Positions 18,424 to 21,756 of a DNA stretch of 59,424 nucleotides are shown piece after piece; positions within the stretch are counted from its first letter, which is position 1; each line of letters starts with the position of its first letter. The stretch lies in NCBI GenBank assembly GCA_964574605.1, contig CAZNOK010000002.1:1-59424 (forward strand). The letters are read 5' to 3'. The stretch is from an uncultured Verrucomicrobiota bacterium (GTDB lineage: Bacteria > Verrucomicrobiota > Verrucomicrobiia > Palsa-1439). The notes beneath the pieces were generated by a model, which was not told where the DNA came from, searched no databases, and was given only the letters and a program-made list of their open reading frames with translations. Made by a program: the position numbers and the translations under genes.

Positions 18424-21400
18424 TTATGGCGAAGGAGACCAACTTTCTTGGCAACAAGCTGAACAACTGGATGGGACATACGTCTTCAAAACTGCCGTTT
18501 GTGATGAACTCAAGCTCCCGATGCAGGAACTGACGTCAGACACGGTTACATCCAGAGGTGGAAGGGTTATTCCAAGTTGCTGTAATTTTTGATTTATTCG
18601 CGTCGTCATTTGCTCCGGCGTCATAGTCGTCCAAAGCAGAACAGGGAATAGCTCCAGTAACCCCAAGCCCGCCGCTTGAAGGATTAGATCCCACAACAAC
18701 CACTTGTCTTGAAGCGTTTGGTAAACCGCAAAACCAACATCAATGGCCACTTGGTCTGGCGGATCGTCTTGGTTTGCCCACAAATTCTTCCAAAGGTTCC
18801 ATGGAAATTCATTGAGATGTTGTGCAACTCCAGCACCGAAATGCAGATACCATTTACCAAAACCTGCCATGCGCCCCACAAGCCCGAAATAAATATTTCC
18901 CGGAACGTCCCAGCGATGGCACTCATCGCATAACGTCACGGTCCATGAATCCGTGTCTGGTTCCTGTGTATTTGGATTCAGGAGATGCTTGCAATCGGCT
19001 GTCGGACAATTTCCTTTGGTAGGGCCTGTGCCAGAAGGACCACCTTGAATAGGAACCTTCAAATCCCAACGGTGCCCGGGGTAAACTCGCCAAGCAAAAA
19101 TGCTAGAGGCTATCGCAAAACCGGTCTTGCCATAGTAACGATTCAGAAAACGCATAAGCACCATCTCCGGCGAGGCGGCGTCTAGGTTCATTCGCTCAAC
19201 TAACCAATCAGTGACTTCCGGCCCGCAGAGGTGAGGCGAACTCGATGAGCTACTGGAACTGGAGGAACTGCTTGCGGAACTCGATGAACCGCTACTGGAA
19301 CCTGAAGAGGTGCTGGTTGAACTCGTCGAAGTCGAGGATTCACTGGTCGAACTCGTCGAGGTTGAGGACGTGCTAGTTGAACTTGTCGAAGTCGAGGACT
19401 CACTGGTTGAAGACTCGCTGGTGGAGCTTTCACTGGCGCTCGAATTGGACACCGAAGAACCGCTGCTGGAACTCGACGAACTGGCACTGCTGCTGGAACT
19501 GGATGAACTGGATGACGACGAAGAGGAGGACGAACTGGAACTGCTGGAGGGAATCTCCATGAACCACTTCACGGCAAGGTACACCTCCACGCCTTGGCGC
19601 TGGGAGTTATCGAGTGCGGCGTCGAAACAGGCCAACTCGCAGATATCACCGTTGAGGAACGAAGCGCTGCCGTCGTTGAGAGCGCCCAAGCCAAAAGTGT
19701 CGTTCTCGATGTTCGCATCTTCAGGAAGGTCAGCTTCTGCCACCAAATCGCCATCGAGGTAAAGGCTTAAATGGTTACCGTCTTTGACCAGCGTTACGAC
19801 CGCCATGTCCGCTGTCATCTCGTCGTCGTCAACACAGCCATTGCCGCTGCTGTCTTGGAATCCTTCGGCATAGCCGCTGGCGTTCCGGCGGAACCCAAAC
19901 CCGTCAAGATCGGTCTTGTCACCCAGATGAAATGCGGTCTGGTCCTCGTCGCTGACCCTCACGACAAGGAACAACGTCTTCGAACTGTTGCCGCCAAGTC
20001 CCGACACCGCGCCGGTGAGTAGATTCTCCTCGCCATCAAACCGCACGACGGGCAGGCCATTTTGGATAGCGATCTTGTACATCGGTGCGGCATCTTCATC
20101 GCTGGCGATGATGTGGTGATCGCCGCCACTCTTGTCTTTCCACGCCCACACCGGGTCCTCGTCCGCTGTGACCGGCTCGGTCATGTCAGCGTCTTGAAAG
20201 AGTGTATCCGCGTCGGCGGCGTCAAACCAGAGCTTCAACTCCGGGCCAGTCCACGATGAGGATGATGAGGACGAGGAGCTACTGCTCTGCGACGAACTAC
20301 TGGAGGAGCTTCCGCTGCTGGAGGAATTGGATGAACTGGATGAACTGGATGATTGGCTACCAGAGGAGGCACTCGACGATGAACTACTGATGAAAAATGA
20401 ACTGCTTGATGGTGGTTCGCTGGAAGAACTGCTCGACTGGCTTGACGACGAACTGGATGAGCTTGAACTACTGGAGGACGATCCAGGGTCTTCCTCCAAC
20501 TCCAACGTCTCCGGACTTTCCGCGCAGCCATCGGCGCGCGTGTAGGTGCCGACGGGAGTCGCCCCGGTGTGCTTGTAGCCGAGCCAGATGGTCGAGGCGT
20601 TCTGCTGTGGGGTCTTGCACGAAACCAACAGCCACCACCGGCCGTTGCTGATGTCCAGACCGACTTCGCAGTGTCCAAACAGCGCGCCGTTGATGTAAAG
20701 CCCCGTGTTGCTATAGCCCCACGAACATTCCGGCGACTGCTGTGGTTGATTGATGGTGCCATTCCAAGGCGTCTCGTCAACCACGCCCGTGTCGCAATCC
20801 TCGCACCGTTCCAGCAGCCCGTCATAATAACCCGCGATCCGCCAATAGCCGGATAAATTCTCCGGACACTCGTCCGGAACACCGCTGCTTGCCGAGGAAC
20901 TGGAAGACGGTGGTGGACCGGAAGAACTGGATGAGGGTGGCGCGCTGGACGAACTGCTTGGTGGTATGCTTGAGGAGGATGAGGTCGTGCTGCTGGAACT
21001 CGTGTTTGACGATGAAGAAGAACTTCCGCTGCTGCTACTGCTTGGCCAGTATTGCGGCGTGAACGACAGCCACGAGTGCGAACCGCTCAGGTCGGTAATC
21101 GTCAGGTCGTTGCCGTTCTCGCTCAGGTCGTGGACGGTCGTCCCGCTCCCCTCGTGCATGTCGTAGGCCGCGACTGTGTATTCATCCGCCGGCAAGGTGC
21201 CGGGAGGCGTAAAGTTCTCGGTGTAGCGGGCGATGTCGCTGATGCGGCAGGGGCCAATCCGGATGTTGCCGTGCTCGGTGTTGCTGCCCACCCAGCCGTT
21301 GATGCCGATGTCGCCAAGCTCAAGGTCGAGGTCATCCTGCATGTTGACGGCCTTTACCCGGCCGTCAACGGCAACATAGACGACACTGGCCTCCGGGTCA

Positions 21401-21756
21401 TAGGAAACTGCGATATGGTGCCACCCTACGCCGGAGCCGATGCGGTCACTGTTCGCATAGATGCCGATCCAGTCGCTCTGGACCATGAAGTCGCCGTTTT
21501 CGTCCACATTGACGAGCAACCCGACGCATTCAGGTGCCGTCTTGCCGTTCGGGCTGGTGAGGTTAAGCACGTTCTTCGACTCGTCAGTCCAATCGAGGTA
21601 GAACCAACCCTCCAGCGTGTAGGGCACATCGCCGCTTTCGAGGCCAGCGATAAACTCACCGGCAGCCGACGCGTTGTAGGTGAACCCAAGGCTGCCGGGC
21701 GTGCCGGAACCGCTGCTGGACGATGACGCCGATGAACTGGAGGAGGAAGAAGACAT
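18424..21756 (-). CDS. Mosaic 1110-aa protein: poly-Ser N-terminus, LamG, poly-Ser, Cys-rich module, poly-Ser, LamG-like jelly roll, poly-Ser/Thr, toxin-like C-terminal domain
   Basis: A single open frame links recognisable globular blocks. LamG 1 spans about 21043-21700. An 8-Cys module spans 20482-20884. LamG 2 spans 19549-20253 and ends ...QRQGVEVYLAVKWF. The C-terminal domain (18424-19235) contains HRWDLKVP and WDVPGNIYFGLVGRMAGFGKWYLHFGAGVAQ. There is no N-terminal signal peptide (MSSSSSSSSASSSSSGSGTPG). Confidence 0.8.
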   Translation of the reverse strand: MSSSSSSSSASSSSSGSGTPGSLGFTYNASAAGEFIAGLESGDVPYTLEGWFYLDWTDESKNVLNLTSPNGKTAPECVGLLVNVDENGDFMVQSDWIGIYANSDRIGSGVGWHHIAVSYDPEASVVYVAVDGRVKAVNMQDDLDLELGDIGINGWVGSNTEHGNIRIGPCRISDIARYTENFTPPGTLPADEYTVAAYDMHEGSGTTVHDLSENGNDLTITDLSGSHSWLSFTPQYWPSSSSSGSSSSSSNTSSSSTTSSSSSIPPSSSSSAPPSSSSSGPPPSSSSSASSGVPDECPENLSGYWRIAGYYDGLLERCEDCDTGVVDETPWNGTINQPQQSPECSWGYSNTGLYINGALFGHCEVGLDISNGRWWLLVSCKTPQQNASTIWLGYKHTGATPVGTYTRADGCAESPETLELEEDPGSSSSSSSSSSSSSSQSSSSSSEPPSSSSFFISSSSSSASSGSQSSSSSSSSNSSSSGSSSSSSSQSSSSSSSSSSSWTGPELKLWFDAADADTLFQDADMTEPVTADEDPVWAWKDKSGGDHHIIASDEDAAPMYKIAIQNGLPVVRFDGEENLLTGAVSGLGGNSSKTLFLVVRVSDEDQTAFHLGDKTDLDGFGFRRNASGYAEGFQDSSGNGCVDDDEMTADMAVVTLVKDGNHLSLYLDGDLVAEADLPEDANIENDTFGLGALNDGSASFLNGDICELACFDAALDNSQRQGVEVYLAVKWFMEIPSSSSSSSSSSSSSSSSSSSSSASSSSSSSGSSVSNSSASESSTSESSTSESSTSTSSTSTSSTSTSSTSESSTSTSSTSTSSGSSSGSSSSASSSSSSSSSSSSPHLCGPEVTDWLVERMNLDAASPEMVLMRFLNRYYGKTGFAIASSIFAWRVYPGHRWDLKVPIQGGPSGTGPTKGNCPTADCKHLLNPNTQEPDTDSWTVTLCDECHRWDVPGNIYFGLVGRMAGFGKWYLHFGAGVAQHLNEFPWNLWKNLWANQDDPPDQVAIDVGFAVYQTLQDKWLLWDLILQAAGLGLLELFPVLLWTTMTPEQMTTRINQKLQQLGITLPPLDVTVSDVSSCIGSLSSSQTAVLKTYVPSSCSACCQESWSPSP
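19236..19548 (-). repeat. Coding low-complexity Ser/Thr/Glu tract (linker 3), internally repetitive (SESSTSESSTS...STSTSSTSTSS)
   Basis: About 104 codons, almost all Ser with periodic T/E. Short tandem units are visible in the DNA (gaactcgtcgaagtcgagga...). Confidence 0.85.
20254..20481 (-). repeat. Coding poly-Ser tract (linker 2)
   Basis: About 76 codons, dominated by Ser, between EEDPG and WTGPELKLWF. Confidence 0.85.
20885..21042 (-). repeat. Coding poly-Ser/Pro tract (linker 1)
   Basis: SSSSSGSSSSSSNTSSSSTTSSSSSIPPSSSSSAPPSSSSSGPPPSSSSSASS, between ...TPQYWP and GVPDECPE. Confidence 0.85.

Follow-up and report, generated by a model that had tools for sequence, protein, structure and literature searches.

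The window analysed here is a stretch of 59,424 nucleotides (nt) from an uncultured bacterium of the Verrucomicrobiota. An open reading frame (ORF) of 1110 amino acids (aa) on its reverse strand (18424..21756) probably encodes a polymorphic antagonistic toxin of freshwater Verrucomicrobiota, built on a serine-linked scaffold and accompanied by a cognate partner. The C-termini that follow the shared LamG2/poly-Ser scaffold are polymorphic, and the one in the window is, judged by its sequence, a true but divergent member of the Ntox44 family. At the same chromosomal locus of a closely related strain it is replaced by an unrelated C-terminus, and across the family the genes downstream of the toxin change together with the C-terminal type.

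The probable toxin ORF and its Ntox44 domain

The module boundaries of the toxin are our own parsing of the 1110-aa frame, which gave the following features:

18424..21756 (-), whole toxin ORF, 1110 aa: M-polySer, LamG1, linker, Cys module, linker, LamG2, linker, Ntox44-family domain
21691..21756 (-), N-terminus, aa 1-22: Met followed at once by poly-Ser, without a signal peptide
21046..21690 (-), LamG1, aa 23-237: ConA/LamG-type module
20881..21045 (-), linker 1, aa 238-292: Ser/Pro-rich, 55 aa
20488..20880 (-), Cys module, aa 293-423: 7 Cys
20254..20487 (-), linker 2, aa 424-501: poly-Ser, 78 aa; the window and L029 alleles have their recombination junction here
19558..20253 (-), LamG2, aa 502-733: ends in ...QRQGVEVYLAVKWFM; module common to the whole family
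19237..19557 (-), linker 3, aa 734-840: Ser/Thr/Glu, 107 aa; poly-Ser with SSTSE/SSTST repeats
18427..19236 (-), Ntox44-family toxin domain, aa 841-1110: extreme C-terminus of the ORF
18487..18723 (-), insertion of ~75 aa within the toxin domain, aa ~1012-1090: common only to the window and L001

Serine accounts for 250 of the 1110 residues, and the frame has four poly-Ser tracts. All six Ser codons are interleaved in these tracts, with single-codon runs of 2-3 at most, indicating that the tracts are maintained as protein sequence rather than being slippage repeats. An earlier sequence-only reading of this DNA had described the frame with its four tracts and two LamG modules; these are present as claimed, and all the peptide strings that it quoted were found in the ORF. 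Its linker lengths of 53, 76 and 104 aa became 55, 78 and 107 aa when the frame was parsed again. The Cys module, to which it had assigned eight cysteines, has seven in the window (residues 297, 318, 321, 344, 363, 380 and 411), an eighth being present in the near-identical L029 allele. No match to this module was found in Pfam or PHROG. The Pfam model Laminin_G_3 (PF13385) matched the whole toxin in two stretches (E 9.3e-13, 49 bits). LamG2 alone reached 35.5 bits, above the gathering threshold of 27.6, and LamG1 alone 25.8 bits, slightly below it, so that LamG1 passes only jointly with LamG2.

The resemblance of the C-terminus to Ntox44, which the sequence-only reading had proposed, was borne out by the profile search. 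Against a Pfam cut-off of 24, Ntox44 (PF15607) reached 30.2 bits with the entire protein and 33.1 bits with aa 841-1110 taken alone, the match covering positions 39-103 of the 104 in the profile. Similarity above the cut-off speaks in favour of a toxin. Ntox44 was defined as an all-alpha domain with the motifs DxK, GNxxxG and DxxxD (Zhang et al. 2012, PMC3482391). All three occur in the window, as D898-L-K900, G953-N-I-Y-F-G958 and D997-D-P-P-D1001, and each of the residues D898, K900, N954, G958, D997 and D1001 is present in 45-50 of the 50 aligned relatives and in L001 too.

In the 50-sequence domain alignment, the whole 270 aa aligned end to end with a subfamily whose signature is CGPDVTxWL ... 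WDFK ... CPxxxC..TVTLCxxC..YDVPGNIHFG ... GAGxAQ ... DDPxD..AI..G ... CxxC. The window keeps CGP...W (C844-W851), WDxK (W897, D898, K900), CPxxxC (C917, C922), TLCxxC (C943, C946), GNxxxG (G953-G958), AQ (Q979), DxxxD (D997, D1001), G1008 and the terminal CxxC (C1098, C1101). The domain has eight conserved cysteines, and nearly all columns conserved at 80% or more are retained in the window, including the cysteines, with the exception of E847, D859, R890 and Y956.

A word-indexed search of 5.8 billion proteins returned a single relative, P0002 (51% identity), whereas among 1.84 billion representatives an exhaustive search with HMMER returned 293. Of these, 95% carry the domain C-terminally, with a median of 20 aa between the domain end and the C-terminus. 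All 32 relatives that were sampled matched Ntox44; 21 carried eCIS_core (formerly DUF4157), four carried RHS repeats, and there were others. Fusions of the types VanY-eCIS_core-Ntox44, eCIS_core-SLT-Ntox44 and eCIS_core-OmpA-Ntox44 were among the relatives (P0010, P0016, P0065, P0072). Together with the profile score and the three motifs, the uniform Ntox44 identity of the sampled relatives supports the reading of the C-terminus as a toxin, as far as comparison of sequences can.

A structure model had also been called for. The AlphaFold2 model of the toxin domain was confident (predicted local distance difference test, pLDDT, 84.9; predicted TM-score, pTM, 0.84) and mostly alpha-helical, with 14 helices and one small hairpin. 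The likeness to a solved toxin did not materialise: Foldseek found no fold match in PDB or BFVD (best E 0.68 and 0.63, TM ~0.16), the reason being that no structure has been solved for any relative of Ntox44. At the sequence level, PDB gave nothing significant for the toxin domain or for a 49-sequence profile, and NCBIfam had no match for the toxin or its neighbour genes. In the searched literature, Ntox44 is a ribonuclease (RNase) by prediction only and is termed 'poorly characterized'.

A hydrophobic helix had been pointed out in the same domain and is present at aa ~1019-1043, inside the ~75-aa insertion, where the 19-residue Kyte-Doolittle maximum is 1.85 in the window vs 1.35 in L001. The helix is not a conserved membrane segment, because the same region is not hydrophobic in L001, the closest homologue, and a role as membrane anchor was rejected for this reason.

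On the strand opposite to the poly-Ser tracts, L/E-rich ORFs ('LEELLEL...') were observed in the window at 19310-19762 (+), 20327-20545 (+) and 15701-15904 (+), and in L001 at 703-1119 (-). These ORFs are artefacts that poly-Ser coding produces. In public gene calls they were picked, and the true toxin ORFs broken at their poly-Ser tracts; P0001, P0002, P0157 and P0158 are all four fragments of true ORFs. Since gene callers break the ORFs in this way, protein databases hold the toxin family only as fragments.

Replacement of C-termini and the partner genes

Genome and metagenome contigs were queried for relatives, first using the scaffold modules and afterwards an alignment of LamG2, and the ORFs of the loci were re-derived and divided at poly-Ser tracts into a combinatorial module map. 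Seventeen loci with LamG2 were found, all from freshwater metagenomes or Verrucomicrobiota metagenome-assembled genomes (the sources include Lac Pavin and 'M_DeepCast_400m'). LamG2 is 58-67% identical across the 17 loci and is followed by six unrelated C-terminal domains (types A to F). The search for other C-termini on the same scaffold, which had been suggested from the sequence, was thus productive, with another C-terminus at the very same locus in L029. An invariant C-terminus among the relatives would have refuted the toxin reading; the polymorphism observed speaks in its favour. Each C-terminal type has its own downstream gene family, homologous within a type and unrelated between types, and all partners carry a signal peptide, a lipobox or an N-terminal membrane anchor. 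The types and their partners are as follows:

Type A: Ntox44 (window, L001); partner, the membrane-anchored g2 (window, L001)
Type B: GYSWG-motif domain (L008, L010, L011, L021); partner, a lipoprotein in which the 'FIGRAEK...' domain occurs once or twice (L011, L021)
Type C: L012, L024, L025; partner, a homologous pair (L012, L025)
Type D: L014, L020, L022; partner, 298-aa secreted proteins (L014, L022)
Type E: L026; partner, a HEAT-repeat protein with a signal sequence (L026)
Type F: L009, L029

Pfam gave no family for any of types B to F. The GYSWG of type B is a GxSxG esterase-like motif, which is the sole ground for a lipase reading, and a PDB sequence search with the type-B C-terminus gave nothing significant. 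A transglutaminase or papain idea for type C goes back to a C...H...D pattern seen by eye, with no Pfam family. In L025 (1-2551), the type-C C-terminus was observed to be split between two ORFs, one for a tail of 178 aa and the other for a protein of 260 aa that has the C...H...D pattern. An immunity class of HEAT-repeat proteins, to which the type-E partner may be compared, is given in Zhang et al. 2012 (PMC3482391).

In three independent swap pairs the N-terminal modules are kept and the C-termini differ. The window (type A) and L029 (type F) are 99.5% identical in LamG1 and 96% in the Cys module, while the N-terminal modules are 86% identical between L021 (B) and L022 (D) and 79% between L012 (C) and L011 (B). 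L029 is a metagenome contig in whose flanks the MTTB gene is 100% and a 625-aa gene 99.8% identical to the window, showing that it comes from a closely related strain and represents the same locus of the chromosome. DNA identity between the two alleles is ~100% in the flank and 96-99% over LamG1 and the Cys module, drops to 51-77% within ~20490-20260 (linker 2), and is at noise level further 3'. Because identity collapses inside linker 2, the poly-Ser-coding tract coincides with the recombination junction. The G+C content of the window was observed to fall to 0.52-0.58 at 16000-20000 vs ~0.60 elsewhere, with an AT skew down to -0.23; this dip spans g2-g4 and the 3' half of the toxin gene, the portion swapped between alleles.

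The LamG modules also had matches in PHROG (LamG2 to phrog_10356, 'virion structural protein', E 8e-14; LamG1 to three PHROGs at ~1e-7), as had, weakly, the zinc-ribbon-like half of the downstream gene g3 (phrog_13558). These would fit a receptor-binding or fibre protein of phage or tailocin origin, with the LamG modules as virion components. Capsid, tail, terminase and integrase genes were absent from the 59-kb window, however, a tRNA scan of the window found none, and the flanks are chromosomal metabolic genes which are identical between alleles. A phage origin is therefore highly improbable, and it was rejected, the PHROG matches being limited to the generic LamG fold.

The gene that follows the toxin in the window, 16 nt downstream, is:

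17490..18407 (-), g2, 305 aa: N-terminal membrane helix at aa ~23-52, bulk predicted outside the cytoplasm; candidate Ntox44 immunity protein

A g2-family gene lies directly 3' of the Ntox44 gene in all six loci examined (window, L001, L040, L041, L044, L045), and g2 homologues carry lipoboxes. In L040, an unrelated contig, a small distant g2 homologue (P0007) comes right after a protein with Tox-PAAR-like and Ntox44 domains. L041, L044 and L045 encode short, apparently single-domain Ntox44 proteins, and their downstream genes match a g2-family hidden Markov model (HMM) with E 2e-10 to 5e-9. No match to this HMM was obtained for the partners of types B-E, and Pfam and NCBIfam hold no matching model for the family. 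These sequence relationships make the g2 family a candidate immunity family for Ntox44. The AlphaFold2 model of g2 (5 sequences; pLDDT 61, pTM 0.40) was too weak for a fold search, and therefore only its membrane helix was used.

Two tandem type-D partners are encoded in L014 (11951-13740), the second of which is 76% identical to the L022 partner (6673-7569); despite this, the toxins of L014 and L022 are only 39% identical. From its sequence, the second L014 partner looks like an acquired extra immunity gene. Orphan cassettes or paralogues were not found within the window.

For Ntox44, no immunity family is given in Zhang et al. 2012 (PMC3482391), which would also fit an effector directed against eukaryotes, e.g. 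protist grazers, the downstream genes being chaperones, activators or unrelated lipoproteins. In favour of such a target, the closest distant relatives of the toxin domain are mostly eCIS_core proteins, known extracellular contractile injection systems (eCIS) frequently target eukaryotic cells, and corals and microsporidia have acquired Ntox44 by transfer (reports including Zhang et al. 2012, PMC3482391). Nevertheless, an anti-eukaryotic effector appears improbable in view of the g2-family gene found 3' of every Ntox44 gene examined and the exported partner that every toxin type has of its own. In addition, the extra tandem partner in L014 matches that of another strain, as expected for defence against the toxins of kin, but not for chaperones.

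Export, accessory genes and the proposed model

An in-frame TAG lies 3 codons 5' of the toxin ATG, and therefore an N-terminal extension or hidden signal peptide is excluded. Among trafficking domains (TPS, LXG/WXG, PAAR, VgrG, RHS, eCIS_core etc.), none was detected, Pfam and NCBIfam giving the toxin only LamG and Ntox44. These results agree with the sequence-only reading, which had seen neither a Sec or Tat signal nor a trafficking domain of type V, VI or VII secretion systems (T5SS, T6SS, T7SS). The full-length relatives likewise have no recognised trafficking domain. They start either as M-polySer, like the window and L011, L012, L021 and L029, or as a basic stretch followed by poly-Ser, and none has a signal peptide. 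In L014 and L024, the toxins begin with a basic stretch resembling the N-terminus of the accessory protein g5, and then continue with ~140-210 aa of poly-Ser. Other secreted proteins encoded in the same window have ordinary Sec signals.

The 59-kb window is rich in polysaccharide-degradation genes (DUF4838, beta-helix, GH28, GH109, BNR, carrageenase-like propeller), and poly-Ser linkers occur in secreted glycanases. Such surroundings would suit a secreted or surface glycoprotein for nutrient acquisition or wall remodelling, in which LamG would bind carbohydrate, the poly-Ser tracts would be spacers like those of carbohydrate-active enzymes (CAZymes), the C-termini would be catalytic heads (e.g. 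an esterase or wall hydrolase) and the downstream genes helpers. The esterase-like motif of type B and the fusion of Ntox44 relatives to the wall-directed VanY, SLT and OmpA point in the same direction. We regard this function as unlikely, however, since members of the C-terminal family occur almost exclusively at the end of RHS, PAAR-like and eCIS_core toxins, and replacement of the C-terminus at strain level together with a type-specific exported partner is a toxin/immunity signature. Moreover, a signal peptide was found in no family member, whereas the genome's real glycanases have one.

The window contains a second large LamG ORF (43050-46607 (-), 1185 aa), with a Laminin_G_3 match and a weak MG2 match; tBLASTn shows no relation to the toxin family.

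The toxin gene is the first of a tight co-directional cluster in the order toxin, g2, g3, g4, g5, GT9-like and GT8+methyltransferase, with gaps or overlaps of at most 83 nt. The accessory genes after g2 are:

16832..17497 (-), g3, 221 aa: CxxC...CxxCxC zinc-ribbon-like N-terminal half and 21-nt tandem repeats (PGxSGQx heptads)
16185..16805 (-), g4, 206 aa: conserved accessory protein, 49-85% identical in L012, L014, L022, L025 and L026
15475..16101 (-), g5, 208 aa: conserved basic N-terminus (RKERKPERRRTLRRHPRKKRKP), then ~160 aa of poly-Ser
14351..15478 (-), g6: divergent GT9-type glycosyltransferase (Pfam Glyco_transf_9, 25 bits vs threshold 22)
13140..14432 (-), g7: fusion of a GT8 glycosyltransferase with Methyltransf_24 (Pfam); last gene of the co-directional cluster

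Genes g3-g7 recur beside family members in many loci, at 49-85% identity. The zinc-ribbon-like half of g3, which reads CxxC...WCxxCGC...WGCKHP, is 61-84% identical 3' of the toxin/partner pair in L001, L008, L010, L011 and L021; the g3 repeats lie at 16850-17100, and a g3-like repeat segment forms a separate ORF in L012, L014, L025 and L026. For g4, searches of Pfam, NCBIfam, PHROG and PDB gave no match. The end of g5 overlaps the GT9 gene by 4 nt, and a g5 gene occupies the same position in L012, L014, L022 and L025, the L012 copy having an extra immunoglobulin-like domain. The g5 protein may serve as a substrate for glycosylation or as an element of export. The GT9-like g6 is 75-81% identical in L010, L012, L014, L022 and L025, and g7 is 62-66% identical in L010 and L012. 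PDB sequence searches with g7 and g3 gave nothing significant. A sigma-70 promoter scan of the operon found no sites, and a terminator scan found fewer sites than in shuffled sequences.

Gram-positive adhesins of the serine-rich repeat protein (SRRP) type are Ser-rich glycoproteins with dedicated glycosyltransferases. As in Ser-rich glycoprotein systems (SRRP; TibC/AAH autotransporters, PMC4358343), the long Ser-rich tracts of the window stand beside GT8-type and GT9-like glycosyltransferases, which suggests cytoplasmic O-glycosylation ahead of export. In autotransporters, Ser-directed heptosylation is carried out by TibC/AAH (PMC4358343). The analogy with this heptosylation and with Ser-rich adhesins suggests that the poly-Ser tracts of the toxin may be O-glycosylated by the co-operonic glycosyltransferases. 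Unlike the SRRP and autotransporter systems, the window has no accessory Sec system, LPXTG anchor or autotransporter barrel, and phmmer with the GT9-like g6 finds no PDB chain, TibC included.

In the proposed model, the N-terminal four-fifths of the toxin would serve as a presentation scaffold of the beads-on-a-string kind, in which LamG/ConA-type beta-sandwiches and the small Cys module are held apart by long poly-Ser spacers, and the last 270 aa would form an Ntox44-family toxin domain stabilised by the eight conserved cysteines. The g2 protein, membrane-anchored and facing outside the cytoplasm, would be the cognate immunity protein. Variants would arise via recombination inside the poly-Ser-coding linkers, with the 3' end of the toxin gene and the immunity gene exchanged together, and the 5' modules and the downstream set (g3, g4, g5, GT9-like glycosyltransferase, GT8-methyltransferase) would stay put. 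Export would take place by a non-Sec/Tat route, encoded elsewhere or by the accessory genes. The toxin would act in the envelope or periplasm of the target cell, and not as an RNase in the cytoplasm, which is its annotation. Such a site of action is favoured because the partners are exported, the eight cysteines are conserved, and the relatives include fusions to the peptidoglycan-directed VanY, SLT and OmpA.

A more far-reaching form of this model is doubtful. The whole cluster would then be a self-contained new pathway for cytoplasmic poly-Ser glycosylation followed by export or display of toxins that have no signal peptide; recognition would take place at the M-polySer or basic+polySer N-terminus, the poly-Ser linkers would be built-in recombination sites at which C-terminal toxin domains are exchanged, and Ntox44 would be an envelope-directed enzyme, not an RNase, neutralised by a lipoprotein immunity family.

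Several points weigh against the interpretation as a toxin with its immunity protein. The window has Y956 in GNIH(F/Y)G, where 84% of the relatives have His. PDB and BFVD offer no structural neighbour from which an activity could be read, and the literature search yielded no toxicity or protection assay of any Ntox44 domain. For types B-F, the toxin label is drawn from context, because they have no Pfam identity. Genes of the g2 family occur without an adjacent toxin in L002-L007, which is compatible with orphan immunity as well as with an unrelated housekeeping role, and in L010 (2643-2743) g3 comes straight after the type B toxin, the partner gene being absent. Finally, the toxin has no known trafficking domain or signal peptide and no secretion system was found in the 59-kb window, extracellular delivery being an assumption.

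At 1803-3682 of L002, upstream of the orphan g2-family gene, a secreted LamG/DUF1080-like gene is seemingly interrupted by a 253-aa gene. The last ~35 aa of the latter are repeated in a 51-aa ORF, and it is possibly a mobile insertion.

Relation to known toxin and poly-serine systems

The toxin domain of the window shares with known Ntox44 toxins a passing Pfam score, the three motifs, a predicted mostly alpha-helical fold, the position at the extreme C-terminus and the same downstream partner family. It differs from them in the ~75-aa insertion before the terminal CxxC, the Tyr in place of the usual His, the partial profile alignment (39-103), and in having a LamG/poly-Ser scaffold instead of RHS, LXG, PAAR or eCIS_core. 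The eCIS_core-Ntox44 proteins are nearest to the toxin domain among its distant relatives and have the subfamily signature in common with it, but the window protein has no eCIS_core domain, and contractile-injection genes were not found within the 59 kb.

In its organisation, the system resembles those linked to Rhs, CdiA, LXG, MafB and PAAR, in which a conserved N-terminal part and a variable C-terminus are likewise followed immediately downstream by a type-specific immunity-like gene. Allelic replacement of toxin/immunity cassettes at one locus is a further common trait, and putative orphan or extra immunity genes may be another. Unlike classical polymorphic toxins, however, the window protein has no recognised trafficking domain or signal peptide, its junction lies in a low-complexity poly-Ser linker and not in a conserved pre-toxin motif, and the cassette is followed by a conserved accessory set with two glycosyltransferases. 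The family has so far been found only in freshwater Verrucomicrobiota.

The CAZymes of Cellvibrio, Saccharophagus and Teredinibacter have poly-Ser linkers, Sec signals and CAZy catalytic domains. The window protein is like them in carrying beta-sandwich modules on poly-Ser spacers encoded by mixed Ser codons, but these enzymes differ in their Sec signals and CAZy domains, and do not behave as toxin/immunity cassettes.

Polymorphic toxin systems themselves are already known; what is new here is the LamG/poly-Ser scaffold, the junctions within linkers and the linked glycosyltransferases. Literature searches found no earlier account of polymorphic toxins from Verrucomicrobia with LamG modules or poly-Ser. 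The results extend polymorphic toxins to a scaffold and a phylum with no known trafficking mode, which poses a concrete export problem. The low-complexity poly-Ser linkers at the recombination junction represent a simple mechanism of module shuffling, and the breaking of gene calls at the same tracts implies that such toxins are systematically fragmented in protein databases. The g2 family provides a testable candidate immunity family for Ntox44, a domain whose activity has only been guessed and which is found widely among RHS, T6SS, T7SS and eCIS toxins. The exported location of the Ntox44 partner predicts that the target would lie in the envelope, contrary to the current annotation of the domain as an RNase.

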